Virus record (IMG/VR): IMGVR_UViG_2724679140_000013
Reading direction: 5' to 3' (one strand)
Length of the DNA: 37,432 nucleotides
Source: a virus
Taxonomy: Duplodnaviria; Heunggongvirae; Uroviricota; Caudoviricetes
Below are positions 1 through 33,589 of the stretch, piece by piece. Numbering within the stretch: position 1 is the stretch's first letter; every line of letters starts with the position of its first letter. The translations under genes and the position numbers were made by a program. Below the pieces are notes generated by a model, which did not search any database, was not told where the DNA came from, and saw nothing but the letters and a program-made list of their open reading frames with translations.

Positions 1-1002
1 TTACCCTCTATTGTCAAAAGGGTTCAATTCAACAGCAGCCTCTAAATGACCTGGAGCAAAATGCGCATAACGCATAGTCATTTTTATATCGCTATGCCCC
101 AGTATTTTTTGCAACACAAGAATATTTCCGCCCCGCATCATAAAATGACTGGCAAACGTGTGACGTAGCACATGAGTTAATTGCCCATCAGGAAGCTCGA
201 TCTTCGCTCTCTTAATTGCAGCGTCAAAAGCCTCATAACATGGTGAAAATAGCGCTCCTCGTTTTTTAGGAAGCATAGCCTGCAATTGAGGTGAAATCGG
301 TACAGTGCGGTTCTTCTTTCCTTTAGTTTTGACAAATGTGATTCGACCGGGCAGTACTTGAGATTGTTTTAATCCTTCTGCTTCACTCCACCGAGCACCA
401 GTCGCAAGCCCAATACGAACAACAACCCCCAAATCTTTATTCCGTGACTCATCACACGCAATCAGAAGGCGTTCAATCTCATCTACATACAGAAACGCCA
501 GTTCCTTTTCTTCCTCACGAAACTTGCGAATACCAGTCAGGGGGTTTTCACCAGACCACTCTCCAAGGCGCTTCAGTTCGGCAAAAACAGCATGTAGATA
601 TGACTGCTCACGATTAACAGTTGCTTCACTAAGTTTCTTCTTCCCCTTTGGATTCCATTCACCTGATAATCGCCGCTCCCTGTAGGTGGCAAACATATTT
701 TTATCAAATTGAGAAGCAAACGGATCACCTAACCTAGAACAAATCGCCTCGAGTTTAGCCCTTCGCTCTTCACCGGAAGACAGTGTTTTACCGTACATAT
801 CAAACCAGCGAGCAACCAACTCGGAAAGGTGGGGGCCAGAATCATCCTGAAACTCGCTCCCCAAATTACTATTCATTAAACGGCGCTCATAAGAGAGCGC
901 CTCACCCTTAGTCGCAAACTGTTTACGAATACGCTTTCCCGATGCTCCATACGGGTAACACTCGCAAAGCCATTTACCAGTAGGTAGTCTTCGAACACTC
1001 AT
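1..1002 (-). CDS. int: tyrosine recombinase / phage integrase
   Basis: 333 aa; C-terminal catalytic region with HVLRHTFAS...LGHSDIKMTMRYAH (R-H-R-Y integrase signature); ATG at 1002, stop at 1-3. Confidence 0.9.
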   Translation of the reverse strand: MSVRRLPTGKWLCECYPYGASGKRIRKQFATKGEALSYERRLMNSNLGSEFQDDSGPHLSELVARWFDMYGKTLSSGEERRAKLEAICSRLGDPFASQFDKNMFATYRERRLSGEWNPKGKKKLSEATVNREQSYLHAVFAELKRLGEWSGENPLTGIRKFREEEKELAFLYVDEIERLLIACDESRNKDLGVVVRIGLATGARWSEAEGLKQSQVLPGRITFVKTKGKKNRTVPISPQLQAMLPKKRGALFSPCYEAFDAAIKRAKIELPDGQLTHVLRHTFASHFMMRGGNILVLQKILGHSDIKMTMRYAHFAPGHLEAAVELNPFDNRG

Positions 1003-2091: not shown

Positions 2092-2505
2092 CTAACCCTT
2101 AGTTTCGTTATAGTCACGACCAGCAATACGATGGCCCTTGCCAGAAGCTCTTATTGTACCTGGAGCCAAACTACCAGCGGTCAAGGCTGCCAAAGCCGCC
2201 GCCTTAACAGCCAAAGGTGCAGAGCGATATATTTTAATTAGCTCAATCTCATCTTCAGTGGCATTAGGGATGCCATGTGCACGACTACCAGAAAGTATGT
2301 AATAGACATCTACTCCGCAGCGCCTTCCCAAGAGATTCAGCATAGCTGCATCCGGTGTAGTCACCCCTCTTTCATACTTCCCCCAAGTCTTTGTAGAAAC
2401 TTCAAAAATAGACGCCATATCATCCTGAGTCATGCCAGTTTTCTCTCGTTCCTCCCGTAATCGACGTCCAATAATGACACTTAATTCCTCTTTTTCTGTT
2501 GACAT
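2092..2505 (-). CDS. HTH (XRE-family) immunity repressor, C/CI-like
   Basis: 137 aa; HTH segment GMTQDDMASIFEVSTKTWGKYERG; divergent from the early operon; sits between int and early genes as in P2. Confidence 0.8.
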   Translation of the reverse strand: MSTEKEELSVIIGRRLREEREKTGMTQDDMASIFEVSTKTWGKYERGVTTPDAAMLNLLGRRCGVDVYYILSGSRAHGIPNATEDEIELIKIYRSAPLAVKAAALAALTAGSLAPGTIRASGKGHRIAGRDYNETKG

Positions 2506-5892: not shown

Positions 5893-6057
5893 TTAAACCC
5901 GGCCAGTGAAAATCGCTGGCCGGAGCAGTATCAGGATTTTTTAGTATGCCGTTCTCACAAAAAAACCGCTTGCCATGCCGCAATCAGTCAGGTTACATTT
6001 CCGCTGCACCTCATAAAACGGGTGCCGGGATTGGAACCCCGCAGACTAACAGAGCGC

Positions 6058-6080
6058 ACAACCGCGCCAGCGGTTTTTTT
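6058..6080 (+). terminator. putative intrinsic terminator within the SPFH-to-A noncoding stretch
   Basis: short GC hairpin accgc-gcca-gcggt followed by T7 run. Confidence 0.4.
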
Positions 6081-6259
6081 GTGCGTACCGTATCGCCACG
6101 TCTTTTTCGCGTCAAAATTATGGTGGGGCGTACAGGGCCAGCATCAGCTGGGCCGGGTCCTCTGTTAGCCGGTAGTTCCAACCCTGTACGTCTCACCACC
6201 CCGAGCTTGGAACCTCTGGATGGTGAGTTTTCAAAACTGACTAACAGAGAGGCCACACC

Positions 6260-6931: not shown

Positions 6932-9754
6932 ATGACGGCAGAGTACATCAGGGACTGGCAACAGCCGCGCCACGCAGTGGGACGTGAAGGAACGGGGATC
7001 CCCGTTCCTGAATCCGCGCTTTCCTCCTGGCTGGATGCCTACCGGGCAGAGAACGAGCGCCGCCAGGAAATGGCTGATGCGGCGTTCTCCGCCACGCCGC
7101 TGGGCAACCTGATTAATAAAAGCCTGGATGCACAGGAAAAACAGGACAAAACCATCACACTGGCAGGAGACGCCAGAAAACAGGTACGCGGTGCGGTGGA
7201 TGAAGCCATGGCCTCGCTGCGCCTGCTGCCGTCCTATCTGCGCGATCCGCTTATTCGCCACCTCTCCTTCCTGCGCAAAAAACAGGAAGCCGATCGCCGG
7301 AAAGGCAAAAAGAGCTGGCAGGCTGAACGCTACGCGCGCGGAACCCTGCGCAAAATATTCGAACGTCTGGACCGCACCGACCACCGCTGGCTGACACCGG
7401 GTTATCGCTCCCTTGCCGGACGCGAACGCCTGGATGATTTGCTTTACCTGCCGCAGCTCAACAAGCACCAGATACAGACGCTGGCCACCATGACGGCGGC
7501 GATGTTCAGCAGCACCTTCGAAAAACTCTGCGATGGCTTTGGCGCGACTGATGGCGAGCTGACCATGGAGGTAACGCTGAAGGCGTATCAGATGCTGGCC
7601 CGCATGGCGTTACACCTGCACGCCATGCCTCCGCATTATGACGCACTGACAACAGACAAAGACCGGAGGAACGAACCGGACACGGAGTTGCTGCCGGGCG
7701 CAATCCTTCGCCTGACCTGTGCGGAATGGTGGAAACGCAAACTGTGGCTGTTACGTTGCGAGTGGCGGGAAGAACAACTCCGCGCCGCCTGTCTGGTTTC
7801 CAGAAAAACATCGCCCTATCTGAGCCAGGACGCGTTAAGCGAGTTTCGAGCACAGCGCGAGAAAACACGCGATTTCCTGAAAAGTTTCATGCTGGAAAAC
7901 GAAGACGGGTTCACGATTGATCTCGAGACGGTGTATTACGCGGGAGTAAGTAATCCGGTTCATCGTAAGGCAGAAATGATGGCCACCATGAAGGGGCTGG
8001 AACTTCTGGCCGAAGCCCGTGGCGACAAAGCGGTGTTTCTGACTGTCACCTGCCCGTCAAAATACCACGCCACAACAGAGAACGGTCATCCGAATCCCAA
8101 ATGGAACGGGGCCACCATGCGCGACTCCAGCGATTACCTGGTTAACACGTTTTTTGCGGCGGTCCGCAAGAAACTGAACCGCGACGGCCTGCGCTGGTAT
8201 GGCATCCGCACGGTGGAGCCTCACCATGACGGCACCGTGCACTGGCATATGATGGTCTTTGCTCATCCGGAAGAAATCGACACCATTGTGTCCCACACCC
8301 GCGATATTGCCATTCAGGAAGATCGTCACGAGCTGGGTGATGATATTACCCCACGCTTTAAGGCGGAGTACGTCGACGGCTCAAAAGGCACACCGACCAG
8401 CTACATCGCCACCTACATCGGGAAAAACCTGGACAGCCGTGCCGTGGATGGCATCGACCCGAAAACGGGCAAGCCACGCGTTGACCACGAAACCGGAAAA
8501 TCAATGGCCGAGAGCGTGGAACGCGCCATCGGCTGGGCGCGCCTTCACCGGGTCCGCCAGTTCCAGTTCTTTGGTATCCCCTCCCGTCAGGTGTGGCGTG
8601 AACTGCGCCGCCTTGCCAGCCAGATGGCTCGCAACCCGGAAGGACCGCAACGGCTGAAGGATGACGCAATGGACGCGGTTCTTGCTTCCGCTGATGCCGG
8701 ATGTTTTGCCACCTACATAGAGAAACAGGGCGGCGTACTTGTTCCACGCAAGGACTACCTGATTCGCACCGCCTACGACCTCGCAGATGAGCTGAACGAT
8801 TACGGTGAACAGAGCGTACAGATTTACGGGATCTGGTCACCGCTCATCGGGGAGTCTTCCCGCGTATGCACGCATCCGGACAACTGGAAGCTGGTAAGAC
8901 GCAAACCGGAAGCGGAAGACAGCGCCCGCGAAAATGGTTTTGACCTTCAGGGCGGCCCTGCCGCCCCTTGGACTCGTGGCAATAACTGTCCCCGTATACA
9001 GGAAACGGGCAACAACGGGACAGAACAGCCGGAAGAACGGCCAGCACCGTGGCCGCAGCTTCCTGACGGCGTTGACGTGAATGAATGGATGCGCTCACTG
9101 AAACGGCACGAACACCGGGCGCTGATGCGTTCGCTGCGTGACAAACAGGCAAAAAACAGCAGTGATGAAATGCAGAACTGGACACAGAGCCGCAAACAGC
9201 CACAGCCTTTGCCTGATAACCACGAGTTACTCGCTAAAGAATGGCGGGAGTCTGCTGAATCTCTCGGCCTGCATATCGGTGAACAGCAGATGCAGCACCT
9301 GTTACGGGGCGGCAGTCTGTACGTTGACGGCAGCATCATTGCACCGCAGGGATTTGAAATTGTACGCAAACCGGATACCCGCCCGGACAGCCGAATCACG
9401 CAGCTCTGGCAGCGCCTGAGCCGTAACCACGGCGTAAGCAGCACGGAGATCCGCCATAACCCGGTCGCCAGCTATCTGGAACAGCTGGGGGCATCAGACC
9501 CCGAAGCCGCCGCACGCCTGGCATCCACACTTCAGCAAGACCAGAACACCATGAAAACACCCGTTACCGTGCTTTCTGACATGCTGCGCGCCATCCGCGA
9601 CGCAGAGCACGCACAGAGAATCAGTGAAACCACTGAACGCGCCCGCCGCAAAGCAGACCTGCTGCGGGGTGGCCTGACCAGTGGAAACAAAAAACAGACA
9701 GAAACGGGATTCACAAATCCCGTAAATGAGCAAAAAACGCGCCGCGATATATGA
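6932..9754 (+). CDS. A: rolling-circle replication initiator (P2 gpA family endonuclease)
   Basis: 940 aa; HUH-type motif EPHHDGTVHWHMMVFAHP and downstream tyrosine motif YIATYIGKN; last early gene as in P2; longer than P2 A (about 760 aa) through a C-terminal extension. Confidence 0.85.
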   Translation: MTAEYIRDWQQPRHAVGREGTGIPVPESALSSWLDAYRAENERRQEMADAAFSATPLGNLINKSLDAQEKQDKTITLAGDARKQVRGAVDEAMASLRLLPSYLRDPLIRHLSFLRKKQEADRRKGKKSWQAERYARGTLRKIFERLDRTDHRWLTPGYRSLAGRERLDDLLYLPQLNKHQIQTLATMTAAMFSSTFEKLCDGFGATDGELTMEVTLKAYQMLARMALHLHAMPPHYDALTTDKDRRNEPDTELLPGAILRLTCAEWWKRKLWLLRCEWREEQLRAACLVSRKTSPYLSQDALSEFRAQREKTRDFLKSFMLENEDGFTIDLETVYYAGVSNPVHRKAEMMATMKGLELLAEARGDKAVFLTVTCPSKYHATTENGHPNPKWNGATMRDSSDYLVNTFFAAVRKKLNRDGLRWYGIRTVEPHHDGTVHWHMMVFAHPEEIDTIVSHTRDIAIQEDRHELGDDITPRFKAEYVDGSKGTPTSYIATYIGKNLDSRAVDGIDPKTGKPRVDHETGKSMAESVERAIGWARLHRVRQFQFFGIPSRQVWRELRRLASQMARNPEGPQRLKDDAMDAVLASADAGCFATYIEKQGGVLVPRKDYLIRTAYDLADELNDYGEQSVQIYGIWSPLIGESSRVCTHPDNWKLVRRKPEAEDSARENGFDLQGGPAAPWTRGNNCPRIQETGNNGTEQPEERPAPWPQLPDGVDVNEWMRSLKRHEHRALMRSLRDKQAKNSSDEMQNWTQSRKQPQPLPDNHELLAKEWRESAESLGLHIGEQQMQHLLRGGSLYVDGSIIAPQGFEIVRKPDTRPDSRITQLWQRLSRNHGVSSTEIRHNPVASYLEQLGASDPEAAARLASTLQQDQNTMKTPVTVLSDMLRAIRDAEHAQRISETTERARRKADLLRGGLTSGNKKQTETGFTNPVNEQKTRRDI

Positions 9755-9830: not shown

Positions 9831-10790
9831 ATGAAAATTTGTATCGATGACGGCTCCACCAACATCAAGCTGGCATGGACTGAGAACGGCGAACGCCGCA
9901 ACGCCATCAGCCCGAACAGCTTCAAGTCGGAATGGTCTGCGCCGTTCGGTGGAACGCAGCCCGCAAACTACATGCTTGATGGCGTGCGCTATGGTTTTGA
10001 TCCGGTCAGCGATCGCTTTGTCCAGACGACCGACACGCAATACCAGTACAGCGATGTGAATGTCATTGCCATTCATCACGCGCTGGTCAAATCAGGCATC
10101 ACACCACAGGAAGTGGATGTGGTTGTCACCCTGCCACTGAGCGAATATTTCGACACCAACGCACAGCCGGACATGGCCAACATCAACCGCAAAAAAGCAA
10201 ACGTCATGCGCCCGGTGGCGTACCAGAACGGAAAAGCATTCACTATCCGTAACGTACGGGTTATGCCTGAATCCATTCCGGCTGGTTTTAAAGCACTGGC
10301 TGACATGAGTCCGTTTGAATCCCTGCTGATTGTGGATTTAGGCGGAACCACGCTGGATGTGGCAAAGGTTCAGGGACAACTGGCAGGTATCAGCCAGGTG
10401 TTTTGCGATCCACACGTAGGCGTTTCCCTGATGGCCGATGCCGTACTGTCGGTGATGGCCACTAACGGTATGCGTACCAGTCACCACATCGCCAATACCA
10501 TTATCGAACATCGCCATGATGAAGCCTGGCTGCGCCAGCACATCCACAATGACGCGCATTACGCCAGCCTGATGGCGGTTATTCGTGAAAAGGAAGAAAC
10601 ACTGAAACAACGCGTGATCCGCGCGCTGGCGGGTTTTTCGGGTTACGGGCGGGTGATGGTTGTCGGTGGAGGGGCGGAGATTGTGGCACCCGCTATCCGC
10701 GAAGCCTGCGGAGTTAATGCGACTTTCATCGCGGACGGGGTGCCACAGTTTGCTCTGGTTAACGGGCTGTACGCAATGGACAAGGAGTAA
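9831..10790 (+). CDS. parM: ParM/StbA-type actin-like partition ATPase
   Basis: 319 aa; N-terminus MKICIDDGSTNIKLAW and motifs YSDVNVIAIHHAL, IVDLGGTTLD, VMVVGGGAEI closely resemble plasmid R1 ParM as I recall it. Confidence 0.85.
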   Translation: MKICIDDGSTNIKLAWTENGERRNAISPNSFKSEWSAPFGGTQPANYMLDGVRYGFDPVSDRFVQTTDTQYQYSDVNVIAIHHALVKSGITPQEVDVVVTLPLSEYFDTNAQPDMANINRKKANVMRPVAYQNGKAFTIRNVRVMPESIPAGFKALADMSPFESLLIVDLGGTTLDVAKVQGQLAGISQVFCDPHVGVSLMADAVLSVMATNGMRTSHHIANTIIEHRHDEAWLRQHIHNDAHYASLMAVIREKEETLKQRVIRALAGFSGYGRVMVVGGGAEIVAPAIREACGVNATFIADGVPQFALVNGLYAMDKE

Positions 10791-10794
10791 ACCA

Positions 10795-11109
10795 ATGACG
10801 ACACCAACCAGACGGATAAGTTTCTATCTGAAGCCAGCTGCAGTCAAGAGTGAACGGGAAGCGTGTAATTATCTCGACAGCCTGCCAGCCTCCGAACGCA
10901 GCCGCGCGCAACGCGCGGCATTTCTGGCTGGACTGGCACTCATTAAAAACGATCCTGCCTTTGCTTACTGGCTGGCTGAATGGTCAGAGGGGGAAAATAT
11001 GCCTGCCAACAATCACATATGGGGCTGGCATAACAGCGAGCCTGTTGGTTGCAAAAATCAGAATATAAGTCAAATAAAAAAGAATATTCAGGAATTTTTT
11101 CCTGAATGA
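10795..11109 (+). CDS. parR: ParR-like partition adaptor/repressor
   Basis: 104 aa from ATG at 10795 (AGGAG SD 7 nt upstream); RRISFYLKP...LDSLPASERSRAQRAAFLAGLALIKNDP resembles R1 ParR N-terminal RHH region; directly downstream of parM. Confidence 0.75.
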   Translation: MTTPTRRISFYLKPAAVKSEREACNYLDSLPASERSRAQRAAFLAGLALIKNDPAFAYWLAEWSEGENMPANNHIWGWHNSEPVGCKNQNISQIKKNIQEFFPE

Positions 11110-11113
11110 TCAC

Positions 11114-11140
11114 AAAAAGCATGGCTTTCGCCATGCTTTT
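11114..11140. terminator. intrinsic terminator after parR
   Basis: hairpin agcatggc-tttc-gccatgct flanked by A run upstream and T run downstream. Confidence 0.6.
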
Positions 11141-11429
11141 AAATATCAAATATCAGCTTCGCACTAGAAACGCCCAAGCTTTCCAGCCATACTCATGAGC
11201 ATCCAGCTTTCGACCAGAATCACCACGAACCTTACGGTATCGGCAAAACTGCCAACGAAATCCTTTCGGAGCCGGTTTTTTTACAATTGATTTCAAAGCC
11301 ATCCATAATCACCTCCTTACTGAGAATGATTTTTACCTTGATTATCTGCCTGGATTGACTAGAATCACAGTTGTACATGCAAAACATCAAGGTGATGATA
11401 TTTCTCAGACTATCATTCCTTTGTGTTGA

Positions 11430-11465
11430 AAAGCCCCTGACGGTTGGCCCCGTCAGGGGCTTAAT
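11430..11465. terminator. intrinsic terminator downstream of antitoxin gene (bidirectional potential)
   Basis: 10-bp GC-rich stem cccctgacgg / ccgtcagggg with flanking A/T runs. Confidence 0.6.
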
Positions 11466-11467
11466 AT

Positions 11468-11785
11468 TTATGCAACCTGACAGGAATGTTCTGCCGTCGC
11501 AGTAACAACCCCACCGGAATACCCAAACTTAAAATCCCACCCCAGGATGTTTAGCATGATAAACAGTCGATCAATGGTATGATTATCTAACTTACCATTA
11601 ATGATTTCGCTTACTCTTGGTTGGGTTGTTTCCAGCAATTCAGCAGCTTCTCGCTGGGTAAGACCGCGCTCCTGAATCATTTTTCGGATAATAACCATTA
11701 ATTGGGCCCGGATGTGTTTATCACTAGCTTCATTTACAGAGCTACTTGATGACGCATAAGGGTTTTTGACTACGACGAATTCCAT
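11468..11785 (-). CDS. HTH (XRE-type) antitoxin, HigA-like
   Basis: 105 aa; HTH GLTQREAAELLETTQPRVSEIINGK; directly downstream of the toxin gene. Confidence 0.75.
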   Translation of the reverse strand: MEFVVVKNPYASSSSSVNEASDKHIRAQLMVIIRKMIQERGLTQREAAELLETTQPRVSEIINGKLDNHTIDRLFIMLNILGWDFKFGYSGGVVTATAEHSCQVA

Positions 11786-11855
11786 AACTCTCCAGCCTTA
11801 ATCAGCGATGTTGCTGACATTGATTATGTTATATCAGATTTGAGATACCTGCAAG

Positions 11856-12257
11856 CTATCTTAAGCCATTTTTACGACGATACTCCACTAATTGTTTGTA
11901 TCTTGCGGCAGCTGTCTCATATTCTTTTTTTGACACACCATTTGTCTTTTTCTTAAATGTATGAAGTATGTAAACAGACTCCGCAAATTTCGCAACGTAA
12001 ATCATACGATAAGAATCACTACTCTTGATGGTTAATTGCATTGCGTAGCGACCAATCGTTTCCCGCATTGATTTTTTTTGAGCAGGTGGAACCCCCAAGG
12101 CATCATCACCATCCACTGGAAAATCGAAACTGTCGAAAGAATGAGGACAATCGCTCTGCAGTGCAACAAGCTCAAAATTTATCCTTTCTCGAACAGCTTC
12201 AGGATAACTATCAATTTGTTTCTGAATTTTATCATTCCAATATGTGATGTCTTTCAC
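11856..12257 (-). CDS. RelE/HigB-superfamily toxin (Gp49-like)
   Basis: 133 aa; C-terminal signature YRMIYVAKFAESVYILHTFKKKTNGVSKKEYETAAARYK typical of Gp49/HigB-like toxins; GTG start with GAGAGG SD. Confidence 0.75.
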   Translation of the reverse strand: MKDITYWNDKIQKQIDSYPEAVRERINFELVALQSDCPHSFDSFDFPVDGDDALGVPPAQKKSMRETIGRYAMQLTIKSSDSYRMIYVAKFAESVYILHTFKKKTNGVSKKEYETAAARYKQLVEYRRKNGLR

Positions 12258-12349
12258 TCAGAACCTCTCACCAACGTAACCGAACGAAATTATACAAAGA
12301 TCTTTTTTTCGCTTAAATACATCCACTGAACGTTGATTTTAATGCAAGA

Positions 12350-12369
12350 TTGTGCACAAATTTGCACAA
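12350..12369. promoter_or_regulatory. candidate operator of TA operon
   Basis: ttgtgcacaaatttgcacaa: TGCACAA repeated at 10-bp spacing with partial dyad symmetry, about 95 bp upstream of toxin start. Confidence 0.4.
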
Positions 12370-12867
12370 TTTTTTTGAACGACTTTTTGCCCTTCCGGCC
12401 CGCGTGGCGGCTGGATCCGCCAAGGATCCGTGCGTGCACAAAAAAACGCGTTTTTTCTGCGCGCAGGTGACGGGGGAACAGCCCGCGTTTCAGGGGGTAA
12501 ATAGCATTCCCTGAACGATGTCGCAGCGACACAACAGAATGGCTGTATCGCTCACGCTGAGCGTGAAAAATACGTAAGGGGTTCTGATTTGATGGGGTGA
12601 AAGGTAAGGCCGTCAAATCGCAATGAGACGGCGAGAACATGCTGTCAGCTCGATGGGATTGCGTAAGAGTCTGGCCATCGATGATGGCGATAAGTTGGAA
12701 GACGTCGTGAAATTATCTGATTGATACGGGAGCTGGAGAGTCGGGGCATAAATTTTTTATGCCCCGGCGAAGCAGCAGACAAGCGAAGCGCGTCAGTGAT
12801 GCGGCACCTTGCCGACCACACTCCATAAGTGCAAAATACGAGCAAAGAAATCAATGGAGGCTGTTTT

Positions 12868-13392
12868 ATGGTCATTAATTACAAGCAGTTACGAGAAAAA
12901 CGAGAGCAGGTAAAGGAAAGTTTTCGCCGCAATGAAGATCTGACCCCGCTTGTACACCTTGCCCAGGGAATTGTTGATGCTTATGAAATCTCTCTGGAGC
13001 TGCCATCACAGACATGGACGGATAGCGACGGTAATCGCCAGCATTACGTTTCATGCGGACTGGAAACAACTGAAGGGTTTCGCAGAATGCCTTTATCTCA
13101 GATTCCTGCCGCTACCCCCAAAGCAAGGGGCGGCAATGATGAGCGAAAACTGATTTTTAGCATTGAGACAGTGGTTGACGACACACCTGGCGAAGTCGCG
13201 TTCGTGCATACTCCTCTTTCGATCGCAATGTATAACGATGAAATACAGGTTCGCGTTAATAATAATATCGTGCCACTTAAAGAAGGTAATTCACCCTACA
13301 CCACCGTTTGTGAAGCCATTCAATATTACGTTCTCTCTGAAATTGATAATCTCAAGCCTGACGGCACCCAGAAAATGGTTCAACTCTGGTAA
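12868..13392 (+). CDS. hypothetical protein, accessory gene next to portal
   Basis: 174 aa from ATG at 12868 with GGAGG SD 7 nt upstream; followed by intrinsic terminator; no family recognised. Confidence 0.55.
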   Translation: MVINYKQLREKREQVKESFRRNEDLTPLVHLAQGIVDAYEISLELPSQTWTDSDGNRQHYVSCGLETTEGFRRMPLSQIPAATPKARGGNDERKLIFSIETVVDDTPGEVAFVHTPLSIAMYNDEIQVRVNNNIVPLKEGNSPYTTVCEAIQYYVLSEIDNLKPDGTQKMVQLW

Positions 13393-13397
13393 TAAGG

Positions 13398-13425
13398 ACA
13401 GCCCCATCACGGGGCTGTTTTTTCA
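13398..13425 (+). terminator. intrinsic terminator
   Basis: hairpin cagcccc-atcac-ggggctg followed by T6; overlaps last codons of portal gene on opposite strand. Confidence 0.55.
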
Positions 13426-14453
13426 TCAAGAAGTGCATAAGAGTTAAAACGGATCACCTCTTCGCCAAGCCAGTCATTGATGTGCTTCATGGCCTCCATG
13501 ACGGGCATCAGCTCGTTAATTGCGTAAACCCGCGCGGCCTTCTCCACATCACCAAACGCACTTTTTTCACCCGGCATCGCCCCCATCAGTTGCGGCGGAA
13601 CGCGGTGCGCAGCCAGCACATCATCACGGGATGCCGCCTTAACATTCATGAACTCATCCTTTGCGGTGATCTGCTGGAACGGCAAAATTTGCACCCCCTC
13701 TTTGCCCCCGTTGGGCGCATGAATGAGCACGTTTTTAAACGCACCACCACCACGTGCCCCCTGTAGCGTTTCTTTCAGGGAGTCCATGCTTTCGCGGTTT
13801 ACCTGCGCTGCACCGATGTAGATGATGCACCCGGCGTGGGATCCGTTGTCGTAATACAGTTTTCTGAACATGTCCGCCGAATGAGACAGGCTGGCCGAGA
13901 GTAATGCGCCAAGATATTCCGGCATGCCGTAAATTTCCTGGTTAATGTCAGGATTCATCAGGTGGCACACTTTACCAGGGCGAAACTGAAACGCATCCTT
14001 GCCATCCTGCACATACCACCATGATTCAAGATCGCTTCCGCGTCGCATGTATTTCGCCAGGGCGTGCCGTAATTTAAGCGGTTCGCCGAGCATATTGCTC
14101 CGAAGCTCAAGGAATGCGTTACCGAACACAAACCAGTCCAGCGCCAGCGCCGAGAAATCCTGCCGGGAAAGCAGCGGGTGCGGAATGTAGCAACCGAGCA
14201 ATACATTACGCTTAAAGTAAAGCGCAGACTGATGCCAGGACGTTTGCCGGGCAGCTCTTGCCAGACCGTACCAGTCCACCGGGGTTTCATACCACCGCCC
14301 GTTATCAGCACAGTACATGTTGTCCAGCAGGTCATGCCCGGTCAGGCGATAAGGACCATCAAATGTGAATGCACTGAGCGATGATTCTTTCCTGAGCGCA
14401 TCAGCGAGATCAATGCGTGAACTCATGCGCACTTTTTTATTTTTTCTGCTCAT
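13407..14453 (-). CDS. Q: portal protein (P2 gpQ family)
   Basis: 348 aa; length and sequence character match P2 Q; immediately downstream of terminase gene with overlapping stop/start. Confidence 0.9.
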   Translation of the reverse strand: MSRKNKKVRMSSRIDLADALRKESSLSAFTFDGPYRLTGHDLLDNMYCADNGRWYETPVDWYGLARAARQTSWHQSALYFKRNVLLGCYIPHPLLSRQDFSALALDWFVFGNAFLELRSNMLGEPLKLRHALAKYMRRGSDLESWWYVQDGKDAFQFRPGKVCHLMNPDINQEIYGMPEYLGALLSASLSHSADMFRKLYYDNGSHAGCIIYIGAAQVNRESMDSLKETLQGARGGGAFKNVLIHAPNGGKEGVQILPFQQITAKDEFMNVKAASRDDVLAAHRVPPQLMGAMPGEKSAFGDVEKAARVYAINELMPVMEAMKHINDWLGEEVIRFNSYALLDEKTAP

Positions 14454-16204
14454 CAGAACTCCATAACCGTGAAACGCTCGTTTTCTCCTTCGCCGCCAAT
14501 CGGTTCGTTAATGACAGCAAGCATGGTTGCCCACGCAAGGTCGCCGTGGCTGATCCCCCTCGCGCGGTCCGTTTCGTAAGTGATAAAGCCGCCCGGTGTT
14601 TTCACCTTACGCACGGCGTTAAAGGCCGCGACCAGCTCGCGTTCGGCGCGATCGTATTCCCACCGCCCGGCACGCATTATTTGCAGCATTTTCAGTACCA
14701 GCGACCGTTTTGATGACAGCGTGAAGGTGTACGGAATAGCAGCAGGGAAAAACCGTTTCACTATCTGATAAACAGCCTCCCCGTTCCCGCCCGTCACATC
14801 AATGCCGATGTGTTCCACGTTGTAGCGACACGTGAACTCTTCAATGACTCTGGCCTGTTCTTCAAACTCCAGCCCCTGAACGCGTCGCGTCTCCACCGTT
14901 CGAAAACGGCCTCCAGGAACAGCCGGAGGAACCACTACGGACACAGCGCCGCTGTCGCCGTTTCCACTGCTGCCGTTTGCGTCATACCCAATCCATACCG
15001 GACGATTCCCCATCGGGCGGGGAGCAAAAGGTTTCCAGTCTTTCCAGTCGTCGTATCCGTCAACACCGCAGCCAATCAGTATATTCAGGTTAAATGCCGA
15101 TTCCCCTTCGCGGACAAACTCACACATATAGAGATTGCGGAACTCGTCTTCGGTGTTTTCATCACGAATTTCGTCAATATCGGTGTGTTTCCAGCCGTGA
15201 TTAACCACATCTTCCAGCGTGACAATTTGCCGCCACGTCCGGTCAGGGCAGATAAGCCCGTTATGCAGCGTTTTCCAGTCCACAGAAAAACGCTGACGTT
15301 TATGCGTGGCCTTTTTCTCGTTCCAGCGGTCGCCGTTCCAGTAGGCGTATGCCTCGTGCGTTTCGGTGGATGGCGTGGAGAAGTAGGTGCGCCGCAGTCC
15401 GCTGAGGGTTGCCATAGCGCCAGCCACCTTGCGCAGTTCAGCAAAGCGACTGACCCAGAAAAATTCATCAAAATAAAAATTGCCCGTGTAGGACTGTGCC
15501 GTCGCAGCAGAAGTACCAAGAAAATGCAGCTCTGCGCCGTTGGAGAGGATGATTTTATCGCCCCCTTTCAGCTCCACATCAACTTCAGATGCAGCCTTCT
15601 GAATAATGCTTTTAAACTGGAACGCCTGACGACGCGACGCAGACAAAAAAATCTGGTTACGCTGGTAAGGTTGCGCCACATCGTCACGCAGCGCCATCAG
15701 CAGTGCTTCCTGTGCAAAATACCAGGTCGCCCCAATCTGTCGGGATTTCAGGATCATCCTGTTACGTATCCCGGCTTCACTGCAAAGGGTCAGGGAGTCA
15801 AACCAGCCCCGCTGATGCCACTCCAGCCTGCTGATGATTTTTTCCCGCAGTGCGGCAATCTGCTCCGGCGTGAAATGATTTTTAAGTTTTTTCGCCCGGC
15901 CTTTCTTTCCTGTGGCCGTCACATCCGGCTGGCCATCATGCAGTTTTTTAAGCTGCCGGGTCAGCAGGTCTATTTCCTTAAAGTCACCGCCTGTTTTATT
16001 CTGTTTTTCAGTAAGCTGGATGAGGCGCGCATCGATGGACTGCGTGACACGCTGCACGGGTGGCGTTTCATCCCACTGGTCGCGTTTTTTCCACGCATAA
16101 ATCGTGTTCGGGTTTATTCCCATCAGACGTGATATTTCTGCGGGCGGATAACCCTGCCAGTAAAGTTGCCGCGCACGCTGGCGCACAAAAGCGTCCTGAA
16201 TCAT
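14453..16204 (-). CDS. P: terminase large (ATPase) subunit (P2 gpP family)
   Basis: 583 aa; divergent from O-N-M-L operon as in P2. Confidence 0.9.
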   Translation of the reverse strand: MIQDAFVRQRARQLYWQGYPPAEISRLMGINPNTIYAWKKRDQWDETPPVQRVTQSIDARLIQLTEKQNKTGGDFKEIDLLTRQLKKLHDGQPDVTATGKKGRAKKLKNHFTPEQIAALREKIISRLEWHQRGWFDSLTLCSEAGIRNRMILKSRQIGATWYFAQEALLMALRDDVAQPYQRNQIFLSASRRQAFQFKSIIQKAASEVDVELKGGDKIILSNGAELHFLGTSAATAQSYTGNFYFDEFFWVSRFAELRKVAGAMATLSGLRRTYFSTPSTETHEAYAYWNGDRWNEKKATHKRQRFSVDWKTLHNGLICPDRTWRQIVTLEDVVNHGWKHTDIDEIRDENTEDEFRNLYMCEFVREGESAFNLNILIGCGVDGYDDWKDWKPFAPRPMGNRPVWIGYDANGSSGNGDSGAVSVVVPPAVPGGRFRTVETRRVQGLEFEEQARVIEEFTCRYNVEHIGIDVTGGNGEAVYQIVKRFFPAAIPYTFTLSSKRSLVLKMLQIMRAGRWEYDRAERELVAAFNAVRKVKTPGGFITYETDRARGISHGDLAWATMLAVINEPIGGEGENERFTVMEF

Positions 16205-32322: not shown

Positions 32323-32479
32323 AGCTTCAGCCCCTTGTATCCGTTAAATGATTAGGCAACAATCATCACCCACCACGCGCGTAATCTCACCCCTGCGCCA
32401 TTCTCCCGCCACGGCGACAACAAAAAGCAGTAACCCCCTCCGCACGCACATGCGACCATGCCGCACAGGGAGGGAACAG
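32323..32479. promoter_or_regulatory. divergent intergenic region between FI (minus) and D (plus); expected late promoters
   Basis: 157-bp gap between divergently oriented late genes; no clear Ogr-type dyad recognised. Confidence 0.3.
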
Positions 32480-33589
32480 ATGACCGACACCACCATGCAA
32501 TTGCTCAGTCAGGGCACAGACCCTGTAAAAATGCCGGATTTTGATATTCTCGCGGAGGGTAAAACGCTGTCAGGCGTGGCAGAGCGCCTGATGAGCCTGT
32601 CACTGACCGACAACCGTGGATTTGAGGCGGACCAGCTCACCATCACGCTGGATGATGCGGATGGTCAGTTGCAGCTACCGCCACGGGGCGCGCGCCTGAC
32701 GGTTCTCATTGGCTGGAAAGGAGAACCGCTGACAGAAAAAGGCACTTACATTGTTGATGAAATCGCTCACGAAGGACCGCCGGACAGGCTGACTGTTTCA
32801 GCCAGAAGCGCAGATTTTCGGGATGAATTTAACGTTAAACGTGAGGTGTCCTGGCATGATGTGACCGTTGAGCGTGTGGTATCCGCCATCGCTCATCGGT
32901 ACGGTCTGAAACCACAAATCAGCGAAATACTGATGGATATTGAAATCGACCACGCCGACCAGACCGAAGAAAGCGACATGTCCTTCCTTACGCGCATGGC
33001 GGAAATGCTGGGCGCAATCACCACGGTAAAAAGCGGTAATCTGTTATTCATCATGCCTGGCGGTGGCGTGAACGCACAGGGCCAGCCGTTGCCCTCATTC
33101 GCCATCACACGCAGCAGTGGCGATCGCCATCAGTTCCGCATTGCTGACCGCGAAGCGTATACGGGGGTACGCGCTTACTGGCTTGATCTTAATTACGGGA
33201 AAAAGAAAAAAGTCAGCGTGAAACGCCGCAAACCGCCAAAACCCAAAAAGGAGAAAAGCAGCAGCCGTGAAGGTGATTATATGGAAGGCGCGGAAGGCAA
33301 TGTGTTTGTGTTACGCAAGACTTATCAGAACGAGCAGGCAGCAAGACGCGCAGCGGCGGCGAAGTGGCAGCAGCTACAACGCGGAGCCGCATCATTCTCC
33401 ATCACGCTGGCACGTGGACGAGCAGAACTCTACCCCGAAATGCATGGCACGGTAACAGGATTTAAAAGCGAGATTGATAATCAGGACTGGATTATTGCAA
33501 AAGCCGAGCACACCATTGATAACAGTGGTTTTACCACACAGCTTGAGCTTGAAGCAAAAATCCCGGAATGGATAGCAGAAACAGAGTGA
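32480..33589 (+). CDS. D: tail protein D (P2 gpD family, late control D)
   Basis: 369 aa from ATG at 32480 (GGGAGGG SD); typical gpD features including basic KKKKVSVKRRKPPKPKK patch. Confidence 0.85.
   Translation: MTDTTMQLLSQGTDPVKMPDFDILAEGKTLSGVAERLMSLSLTDNRGFEADQLTITLDDADGQLQLPPRGARLTVLIGWKGEPLTEKGTYIVDEIAHEGPPDRLTVSARSADFRDEFNVKREVSWHDVTVERVVSAIAHRYGLKPQISEILMDIEIDHADQTEESDMSFLTRMAEMLGAITTVKSGNLLFIMPGGGVNAQGQPLPSFAITRSSGDRHQFRIADREAYTGVRAYWLDLNYGKKKKVSVKRRKPPKPKKEKSSSREGDYMEGAEGNVFVLRKTYQNEQAARRAAAAKWQQLQRGAASFSITLARGRAELYPEMHGTVTGFKSEIDNQDWIIAKAEHTIDNSGFTTQLELEAKIPEWIAETE

Follow-up and report, generated by a model that had tools for sequence, protein, structure and literature searches.

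A Gp49/HTH_37 toxin-antitoxin pair as rare cargo of the cos-proximal hotspot in a P88-like prophage

All Gp49-type toxin-antitoxin modules that have been studied place the toxin gene first, and ribosome-dependent mRNase activity as well as plasmid stabilisation are on record for members of the family (PMC5906591; PMC11980606; PMC9098466). A long C-terminal helix is a described feature of Gp49-like toxins, and two of these proteins, HigB2 and HigB3 of M. tuberculosis, are not toxic (PMC9098466). Regulation has been followed in a few cases: the M. tuberculosis antitoxin HigA2 binds ATATCAC-N6-GTGATAT inside higB2 (PMC11205783), while a predicted internal higA promoter of the A. baumannii Gp49 system proved inactive (PMC5906591). 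In P2-like phages, the interval between gpA and gpQ is a known cos-proximal variable hotspot, at which about one quarter of these phages carry a partition system (PMC9122126).

The locus described here lies in a 37,432-nucleotide stretch of viral DNA (IMGVR_UViG_2724679140_000013), called the window below. The host element is an integrated P88-like (Peduoviridae) prophage, with the toxin-antitoxin cargo between gpA and gpQ (Table 1). This interval, bounded by the replication gene A and the portal gene Q, holds cargo that differs among similar phages. Phage P88, which has no such module, carries other genes in place of positions 10863-12330 of the window and shares with it the backbone block 12331-12801; the queried part of this block, 12328-12500, recurs in about 1100 E. 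coli genomes. A cos-like core is seen at about 12406-12424, its similarity to P2 cos being limited to 10 of 19 positions. On these comparisons the module is a rare cargo acquired in the cos-proximal hotspot of a P88-like prophage, and this hotspot of the P2-like phages thereby gains one more cargo type.

Table 1. Positions of the genes and sequence elements in and around the toxin-antitoxin cargo (numbering of the window)
Feature	Position	Strand	Remarks
gpA	6932-9754		
parM	9831-10790	plus	Pfam StbA_N and ParM domains
parR	10795-11109	plus	Pfam Plasmid_stab_B
49-aa basic ORF	11153..11302	minus	strong ribosome-binding site AAGGAGGTGA; small cargo gene
Hairpin terminator	11431..11462		GC-rich; directly after the antitoxin stop codon
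Antitoxin gene	11468..11785	minus	105-aa ORF
Inverted repeat TCAGCAACATCGCTGA	11802..11817	minus	just upstream of the antitoxin ribosome-binding site
Predicted antitoxin promoter	11826..11854	minus	-35 TTGCAG 11849-11854; 17-nt gap; -10 TAACAT 11826-11831
18-bp palindrome TATCTCAAATCTGATATA	11830..11847	minus	candidate operator of the HTH antitoxin; fills the 17-nt promoter gap
Toxin gene	11856..12257	minus	133 aa; GTG start; N-terminus MKD as in homologues
Predicted toxin promoter	12289..12317	minus	-10 TATAAT 12289-12294; weak -35 TTTAAG 12312-12317; inside the cargo
TGCA(A/C)(G/A)A repeats	12343..12369		10-bp spacing; fourth copy 12435-12441; backbone element beside the cos-like core
Portal gene (gpQ)	13407-14453		

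A first-pass annotation, made from the letters alone, had seen at this locus a Gp49-type toxin followed by an XRE-type HTH antitoxin. Pfam, Foldseek and gene order in related loci agree that such a pair is present and intact: both genes are full length relative to their homologues and free of frameshifts, and the profile search that had been suggested puts both products above the cut-offs of their families. On the minus strand the order is toxin, a 70-nt spacer and antitoxin; the toxin comes first, on the same strand as its partner, in all close homologues, and in 89 of 90 related loci the ORF just behind the toxin is HTH_37-like. In RefSeq the identical pair bears the labels of a RelE/ParE toxin and an HTH protein. 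Across six compared loci pN lies far below pS in both genes (0.10–0.25 against 0.70–0.99 for the toxin); since synonymous sites are saturated among these loci, only pN and pS are given and no dN/dS.

The toxin matches Pfam Gp49 (PF05973) with 50 bits against a gathering threshold of 23.9 (E=3.2e-13), residues 58-121 covering positions 26-90 of the 90-position profile. It is a long-form Gp49 RelE-fold protein, in which an insertion of roughly 28 residues separates helix 2 from strand 1, and it has an acidic disordered insertion of 15 residues (38-52); the N-terminal helices fall outside the Gp49 match because of the inserted sequence. The AF2 model (pLDDT 80.7) consists of a beta-sheet and a long C-terminal helix, the predicted topology being two N-terminal helices, a short N-terminal strand, four long strands and a helix at 110-129, a topology that fits the RelE/BECR fold. 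A PDB sequence search with the toxin alone returned nothing significant and a profile search of the PDB returned a weak HigB match (E=0.038), so that a comparison of folds was needed. The best Foldseek matches are S. pneumoniae HigB, V. cholerae HigB2, M. tuberculosis HigB1 and an archaeal RelE, with modest values (E=2.6e-3, TM ~0.5). Residues R84, F101 and K103 align to R73, F90 and K92, the catalytic residues of S. pneumoniae HigB according to PMC9098466. R84 and K103, the equivalents of R61 and R81 of RelE, are invariant in 20 clade members, as F101 is in the clade.

Three parts make up the antitoxin: an N-terminal segment, MEFVVVKNPYASSS, which is conserved but has no confident fold; a DNA-binding domain of the HTH_37/XRE type; and a beta-hairpin at the C-terminus (AF2 model, pLDDT 80.6; alignment of 23 homologues). 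It matches Pfam HTH_37 (PF13744) with 67.7 bits (gathering threshold 27, E=7.7e-19), and a profile search of the PDB retrieves 2a6c (E=1.5e-14), M. tuberculosis HigA2 (7ewc, E=1e-3) and S. pneumoniae HigA (6af3_B, E=0.017). It is better conserved than the toxin, with 72–90 % identity across loci. The first-pass label of a HigBA-type module holds only in the loose sense of a toxin-first pair of RelE-fold toxin and XRE protein. The canonical HigB families PF05015 and PF09907 gave no match to the toxin at E up to 1 in Pfam, no NCBIfam model matches it, and the antitoxin scores 14.3 bits against the NCBIfam cut-off of 47.7 for HigA (TIGR02607). By its profiles the module is a member of the Gp49/Tad-type, toxin-first RelE-fold class and not of canonical HigB/HigA.

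The module is rare. It occurs in one of 5426 complete E. coli genomes, and no close copy is found in 50,697 phage and 72,556 plasmid records; among the phage records, N15 included, no match exceeds 34 % identity. The same pair turns up in Enterobacter, where it lies in a lambdoid prophage, in Photorhabdus, where its neighbour is an Eco57I-like gene, and in a further two lineages of P2-like phages. Among the 80 loci kept from a scan of genome contigs there are only distant relatives (identity ≤36 %), which served for the statistics of gene order and gap length and not for the close clade. Most Gp49 modules overlap by 4 nt, whereas the clade of the present module has a spacer of 64–81 nt, and the long spacer is confined to that clade. 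The picture is that of a rare long-form Gp49 subclade confined to prophages and islands of Enterobacterales.

The spacer is where the regulatory signals of the antitoxin are predicted to lie. A TTGnnn-N17-TAnnnT element stands at the aligned position in all six compared loci, which come from different genomic contexts, and from this an internal antitoxin promoter is inferred. Each module has a single copy of the 18-bp palindrome, invariably in the spacer between toxin and antitoxin, and in five of the six loci this copy has 0–1 mismatches; no other 15-nt stretch of the module is as well conserved (0.85), even though synonymous sites are saturated. These features make it the best operator candidate, and a strong one, with binding by the antitoxin predicted. 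The inverted repeat nearer to the antitoxin reads GTCAGCAATGTTGCTGAC in L091 and has its penultimate A changed to G in L003 and L092; it may form a hairpin in the 5'-UTR or offer another site for protein binding. An RNA-structure reading of the spacer palindromes was rejected, as the consensus fold of the spacer has no covariation support (covariation term +0.78) and Rfam finds nothing in the locus. Upstream of the toxin, a GTATAAT-like -10 element is present 30–40 nt before the start codon in five of six loci, the -35 element agrees with TTGACA at three of six positions, and no palindrome is shared among the six loci. A consensus promoter scan reported neither of the two predicted promoters. 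Downstream, the terminator has a 13-pair stem with 9 G-C pairs, and L007 has this element behind its antitoxin as well.

A different operator had been proposed in the first-pass annotation, which took the TGCACAA repeat upstream of the toxin for the regulatory site of a HigBA module and joined this module with ParMR into one plasmid-like stability cassette. The repeat itself is real. TGCACAA stands at 12353-12359, 12363-12369 and 12435-12441, with a degenerate TGCAAGA at 12343-12349. The whole window has 5 matches where 9.35 are expected, yet four of the five in these 37 kb fall within 12350-12441, so that the cluster is local and not due to chance. The copies lie 86–112 nt upstream of the toxin start and include a perfect palindrome, TTGTGCACAA, which would suit an operator. 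However, they belong to the backbone block shared with P88, which has three perfect copies and no toxin-antitoxin module, and in four other contexts (L003, L006, L007, L092) the homologous modules have no such repeats upstream. In the P2-like lineage L091 all copies are changed together to TGAACAA/TGAACAG at the same place in the backbone. Seen across these genomes, the repeats are an element of the phage backbone and not part of the module, best described as a conserved cos-flanking repeat that changes in concert between lineages. They were also considered as a centromere for ParR, a reading rejected because L091 keeps the variant repeat element without ParMR. As for the cassette, the pair does lie in a prophage beside parMR, as had been said, the ParM and ParR domains being directly to the left of the locus, and Gp49-type modules can stabilise plasmids (PMC5906591). 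The proposed union nevertheless fails: ParMR belongs to P88 itself and is a frequent occupant of the hotspot, L091 has the same toxin-antitoxin cargo at the same place and lacks ParMR, and in the window the two units are convergent, with terminators and another gene between them. ParMR is, on this showing, a separate and common resident of the hotspot, and the combined reading of operator and cassette is very improbable. A reading made from sequence alone, in which a repeat becomes an operator and a neighbour a cassette, can be checked by following one cargo through several backbones and one backbone through several cargoes.

It is also conceivable, if quite unlikely, that the toxin is catalytically dead or weak, and that the pair serves chiefly in transcriptional control, exerted by the HTH protein together with a co-regulator. 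The non-toxic HigB2 and HigB3 set a precedent among Gp49-like proteins (PMC9098466), and M. tuberculosis HigA2 regulates several unrelated genes (PMC11205783). The GTG start of the toxin and the stronger conservation of the antitoxin point the same way, as does the acidic insertion, which lies close to what in HigB1 is the rRNA-contacting face and might interfere with ribosome binding. But counterparts of the residues that HigB2 and HigB3 lack are present here (K62, R84, F101 and K103), all invariant or nearly so, the C-terminal helix is basic, pN of the toxin is far below pS, and the two genes are strictly inherited together. A system of three genes, with the 49-aa basic protein (phrog_33859, E=5e-24) serving for instance as chaperone, sensor or additional regulator, seems highly improbable. 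This ORF does lie 3' of the antitoxin in the P2-like contexts L007, L089, L090 and L091; three distinct contexts of this kind have it in the orientation of the antitoxin, at 77–82 % identity. It has a strong ribosome-binding site and a pN far below its pS (0.11–0.19 against 0.75–0.82). Against a part in the module, it does not stand beside the pair in the lambdoid, Photorhabdus and L092 contexts (L003, L006, L092), 10 other viral contigs and one phage record have the ORF but not the module, and between it and the antitoxin lies a strong terminator. As an obligate third component it was rejected on the grounds that it is lacking beside some modules and found alone in those 10 contigs.

The preferred reading, to which we assign a probability of roughly 70 %, is that of a genuine and intact type II module, composed of a Gp49 toxin (Tad/HigB1-like) and an HTH_37 antitoxin (Ata/HigA2-like), carried as rare hotspot cargo and regulated as follows. 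The toxin would be a RelE-fold, ribosome-dependent endonuclease cleaving mRNA at the A site, with R84, F101 and K103 probably taking the part that the catalytic residues play in S. pneumoniae HigB and M. tuberculosis HigB1. The antitoxin would neutralise it by direct binding, probably via the conserved N-terminal segment MEFVVVKNPY, and an antitoxin dimer would bind the 18-bp palindrome through its HTH domains. The two genes would be uncoupled by the clade's 64–81-nt spacer, which is predicted to house an antitoxin-specific sigma-70 promoter with the palindrome as its 17-nt gap; since the palindrome fills this gap, the antitoxin would act there as an autorepressor. A weak promoter of its own, within the cargo, would drive the toxin gene, with translation in the present copy beginning at a GTG codon. 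For toxin-antitoxin biology this yields a clear regulatory prediction that can be tested: an operator placed within a promoter that serves the antitoxin only.

As to the role of the module, a function in defence or in prophage retention is possible, with about equal weight on abortive infection against phages and on addiction to the prophage. PADLOC-DB 2.0 gave no convincing defence model, only weak partial matches to NsnC for the toxin (E=0.0026) and to PDC-M64C for the HTH protein (E=5e-5). It appears rather unlikely that the small enterobacterial long-form Gp49/HTH_37 clade is a prophage-borne abortive-infection system with a regulatory design of its own (uncoupled genes, an autoregulated promoter for the antitoxin only and an acidic toxin loop that may be autoinhibitory or trigger-sensing), selected in phage cargo hotspots for inter-phage competition and not for plasmid-style addiction. 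The old and tin genes of P2 (Rousset et al. 2022) are hotspot cargo at the same genomic position and, like the module, are transcribed leftward, away from cos. Any anti-phage activity of the module is hypothetical; among the entries examined in the supplementary tables of Rousset et al. there is no Gp49 entry and neither protein accession.

Among toxin-antitoxin systems, the best structural matches of the toxin are HigB1 of M. tuberculosis, the toxin of a TAC system (7nbu/7awk), and the HigB of S. pneumoniae HigBA (6af3/6af4). They share with it the long basic C-terminal helix and the catalytic Arg, Phe and Lys, at an identity of 13–18 % and a TM of ~0.5; their structures lack the acidic loop, and the present locus has no gene for a SecB-like chaperone. 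For the antitoxin, the nearest solved relative with an antitoxin label is M. tuberculosis HigA2 (Rv2021c, 7ewc). Its binding site resembles the palindrome in lying between the toxin and antitoxin starts, not upstream of the toxin, and in its ATATCA/TGATAT half-sites. The hexamers are separated by 8 nt in the HigA2 site and by 4 nt here, and the former is in the toxin coding sequence whereas the palindrome, for which binding is predicted, is in an intergenic spacer. Canonical HigBA, as known from Rts1 and P. vulgaris (HigB PF05015) and from E. coli K-12 (HigB PF09907) with HigA of TIGR02607, is also toxin-first and also combines a RelE-fold mRNase toxin with an XRE-HTH antitoxin, but the present toxin has no match to those HigB families and the antitoxin is far under the HigA cut-off. 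Both partners belong instead to the Pfam families of Tad-Ata of Paracoccus pAMI2, gp49-gp48 of N15, HigBA2 of A. baumannii and the Gp49/HTH_37 pairs of Tn3-family elements. These modules, like the one described here, are toxin-first and reside on mobile elements, including a prophage, and the relationship is visible through profiles only. The present module departs from them in its long-form toxin and in the 70-nt separation of its genes with a promoter-like element of its own, most of the relatives having a 4-nt overlap. The locus is an intact but otherwise ordinary toxin-antitoxin pair, and a further case of a known class.

The window represents an integrated prophage of the P2 family, with host genes past tail gene D (alpha/beta hydrolase, tRNA-Leu, tRNA-Cys, tRNA-Gly and CDP-alcohol phosphatidyltransferase). 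Among named phages, Escherichia phage P88 (Xuanwuvirus, Peduoviridae) comes closest to it. The two are homologous over gene A, parM and the first part of parR as far as window position 10862, again in 12331-12801 and again from 13432. The gap in this homology places the toxin-antitoxin pair within a replaced segment, 10863-12330, where P88 has two unrelated plus-strand genes. This segment is the gpA-gpQ, cos-proximal hotspot of P2-like phages, about a quarter of which have a partition system there (PMC9122126). A second cargo insertion, which separates the backbone block from the portal gene, is missing in P88 and in E. coli EC21Z-048, a strain that carries an identical gene pair, and is found in a viral contig (L089); its 187-aa protein has no Pfam or PADLOC match. 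The integrase and the HTH repressor candidate are separated by two ORFs (128 and 215 aa) that lack a Pfam match. This interval is unlike that of the EC21Z-048 prophage and may be a further site of variable cargo. Upstream of gene A, in the early region, Rfam models detected isrK (72 bits) and C4 antisense RNA (78.5 bits) in tandem. RNAs of this kind regulate antirepressor expression in P1/P7-type phages.

Features of the prophage and of the toxin-antitoxin module (window coordinates)
Feature	Position	Strand	Remarks
Integrase	1-1002		
ORFs of 128 and 215 aa	1008-2073	-	
HTH repressor candidate	2092-2505		
isrK and C4 RNAs	6006-6203	+	
Replication gene A	6932-9754		
ParM	9831-10790		
ParR	10795-11109		
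49-aa basic ORF	11153-11302	-	MALKSIVKKPAPKGFRWQFCRYRKVRGDSGRKLDAHEYGWKAWAFLVRS; phrog_33859; strong ribosome-binding site
GC-rich hairpin	11431-11462		3' of antitoxin ORF; 13-pair stem
Antitoxin ORF	11468-11785	-	105 aa; after 70-nt spacer
Second inverted repeat	11802-11817		just before ribosome-binding site
Predicted internal promoter, TAACAT	11826-11831		
18-bp palindrome	11830-11847		
Predicted internal promoter, TTGCAG	11849-11854		
Toxin ORF	11856-12257	-	133 aa; GTG start
GTATAAT-like -10	12289-12294		within cargo
10-bp palindrome	12300-12309	-	AAAGATCTTT
Backbone block	12331-12801		
TGCACAA cluster	12350-12441		
cos-like core	~12406-12424		CGCGTGGCGGCTGGATCCG
Palindrome in backbone block	12440-12456		AAAAAAACGCGTTTTTT
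Second cargo insertion	12802-13431		
Second-cargo ORF	12829-13392	+	phrog_5091, E=9e-67
Portal	13407-14453		
Terminase	14453-16204		
Tail gene D	32348-33589		

Both genes of the module are full length (toxin against 20 homologues, antitoxin against 23), and the toxin N-terminus, MKD, agrees with the homologues. Pfam profiles place the toxin in Gp49 (PF05973; 50 bits, cut-off 23.9) and the antitoxin in HTH_37 (PF13744; 67.7 bits, cut-off 27), which bears out the first-pass annotation of a toxin-first Gp49 gene with an HTH antitoxin beside a partition locus, ParM and ParR lying directly to the left on the opposite strand. The label of HigBA type, also given there, suits the layout and not the families. 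Since the toxin had no match to the canonical HigB families in the Pfam search and the antitoxin fell far short of a match to the NCBIfam HigA model, the module is, as judged from its profiles, HigBA-like in layout and Gp49/HTH_37 (Tad-Ata) in class. Every studied case of that class is toxin-first (PMC5906591; PMC7157771). RefSeq annotates the pair in EC21Z-048 as a toxin of the RelE/ParE family with an HTH protein.

The AF2 model of the toxin (mean pLDDT 80.7) comprises a pair of N-terminal helices, an acidic, disordered stretch (residues 38-52), a short N-terminal strand followed by four long strands, and a long C-terminal helix (110-129). The best PDB matches found by Foldseek are HigB1 of M. 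tuberculosis (7nbu, 7awk), HigB2 of V. cholerae (8a0x), HigB of S. pneumoniae (6af4) and an archaeal RelE (1wmi), with E-values from 2.6e-3 upward and TM of about 0.5. Published work on HigB1 treats such proteins as Gp49-like toxins that have a long helix at the C-terminus, and lists their catalytic residues (PMC9098466). In a profile alignment, toxin R84, F101 and K103 align to R73, F90 and K92 of S. pneumoniae HigB; their counterparts in HigB1 are R77, F93 and K95, and R61 and R81 of RelE correspond to the Arg and the Lys. All three are invariant within the clade; when short-form relatives are included, H99 and F101 are invariant and K62, Y83, R84 and K103 nearly so. An insertion of ~28 residues at the junction of helix 2 and strand 1, acidic and variable in length within the immediate clade, marks the long-form subclade. 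Toxin divergence is 0.10-0.25 at non-synonymous sites and 0.70-0.99 (saturated) at synonymous ones. We infer that the toxin is an active ribosome-dependent mRNA endonuclease. The antitoxin model (pLDDT 80.6) has a low-confidence N-terminal segment (residues 1-16) in which the motif MEFVVVKNPYASSS is conserved, then a long helix with the HTH, and last a C-terminal beta-hairpin (83-100). A PDB profile search matched it to 2a6c (1.5e-14), 2o38, M. tuberculosis HigA2 (7ewc, 1.2e-3) and S. pneumoniae HigA (6af3_B, 0.017).

The DNA of the module occurs in one of 5426 complete E. coli genomes, that of EC21Z-048, and the adjoining backbone stretch in ~1100 E. coli genomes. Among 50,697 phage and 72,556 plasmid records no toxin was more than ~35 % identical. 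A word-indexed protein search returned 22 toxin and 29 antitoxin clusters, all the named ones from Enterobacterales, while in an exhaustive profile search the clade amounted to one 50 %-identity representative, with few long-form and 1645 wider Gp49 relatives. Close copies are known in four other settings: between replication genes and the Q antiterminator region of a lambdoid Enterobacter prophage (L003), next to an Eco57I-like gene in a Photorhabdus chromosome (L006), with a cos-like sequence on one side and the portal gene on the other in a P2-like phage (L007), and, in the position and orientation seen in the window, in a more distant P2-like phage (L091). The locus is a rare, intact example of a familiar class of toxin-antitoxin systems, located in a prophage hotspot that is itself well known, and only its clade-specific uncoupled layout, with a predicted palindrome-bearing internal promoter, and the acidic toxin loop are mildly unusual.

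The proposal that ParMR and the module make up one stability cassette did not hold: the two units are convergent, P88 has ParMR without the module and L091 the module without ParMR. By this distribution they share a hotspot but reside in it independently of each other. Compared with P88, ParM is 99 % identical and ParR 54 %, and DNA homology breaks at 10862/10863 inside parR; the cargo swap therefore has its recombination junction in this gene, and the variant of ParR moves with the right-hand cargo. The 49-aa ORF lies 3' of the antitoxin in all P2-like copies and is missing beside the module in the others. It occurs without the module in ten other viral contigs and, with or without it, in at least 13 in all. 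Its pN is far below pS, RefSeq leaves it unannotated in EC21Z-048, and its occurrence marks it as a separate small cargo gene.

The TGCACAA repeats, previously read as an upstream operator of the toxin, do cluster, with four of all five matches across the 37 kb lying together, yet they sit at the left edge of the conserved, P88-type backbone block between the two cargo sites. P88, with plus-strand cargo and no module, has AATGCACAATAGTGCACAAATTTGCACAAT at the matching place, L091 has two tandem copies of TGAACAA with a distal TGAACAG, and the repeats were not found in the 200 nt that precede the toxin gene in four other copies (L003, L006, L007 and L092). They are therefore a backbone feature, and the operator reading is rejected. 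Neither are they a ParR centromere, since L091 has the element but no ParMR. The joint change of the L091 repeats suggests a binding site co-evolving with a backbone protein. Within the block, the repeats flank the cos-like core on both sides, and the motif CTGCGCGC is present, which P2 has just right of cos; P2 also carries TGCAT-type repeats left of cos, near the old-tin transcript starts, a place equivalent to that of the TGCACAA repeats. The latter are probably tied to packaging or hotspot-edge transcription. A separate palindrome is found in the same block (Table).

As to the role of the module, defence and retention are about equally likely. Its place within a hotspot rich in anti-phage genes speaks for defence, as do the cargo position in a lambdoid prophage and the restriction-like neighbour seen elsewhere, and the link of a Gp49-family toxin in a three-part system to abortive infection (PMC11980606). 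PADLOC found no matching defence model. Retention by addiction, just as probable, draws on the published plasmid-stabilising activity of Gp49-type modules (PMC5906591).

A better operator candidate is the palindrome in the toxin-antitoxin spacer with its predicted internal promoter. When six modules of differing genomic context were aligned, their most conserved 15-nt stretch fell in this spacer (mean pairwise identity 0.85 versus 0.7-0.8 in coding sequence). It is part of the 18-bp palindrome TATCTCAAAT(T/C)TGATATA, which has 0-1 mismatches in five of the six loci (perfect in L006), is present in a single copy per module, at no locus upstream of the toxin, and in all six fills the 17-nt gap from a TTGnnn to a TAnnnT hexamer. 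As a consensus RNA fold of the spacer gained no covariation support, the second inverted repeat can be read as a DNA site no less well than as an RNA hairpin. In 89 of 90 Gp49 loci the toxin is directly followed by an HTH_37-like ORF, mostly with a 4-nt overlap of the two genes; a gap of 64-81 nt is confined to this clade. Upstream of the toxin, the shared element is limited to the GTATAAT-like -10. In the window copy, the predicted toxin promoter has in its spacer, directly before this -10, a perfect 10-bp palindrome with a GATC (Dam) site that is absent from the homologues. Among known systems, A. baumannii offers a counter-example, its predicted internal higA promoter being inactive (PMC5906591). 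M. tuberculosis HigA2 sets a precedent: it binds a palindrome, ATATCAC-N6-GTGATAT, inside higB2 and not upstream of the operon (PMC11205783), and the half-sites of this palindrome resemble those in the window.
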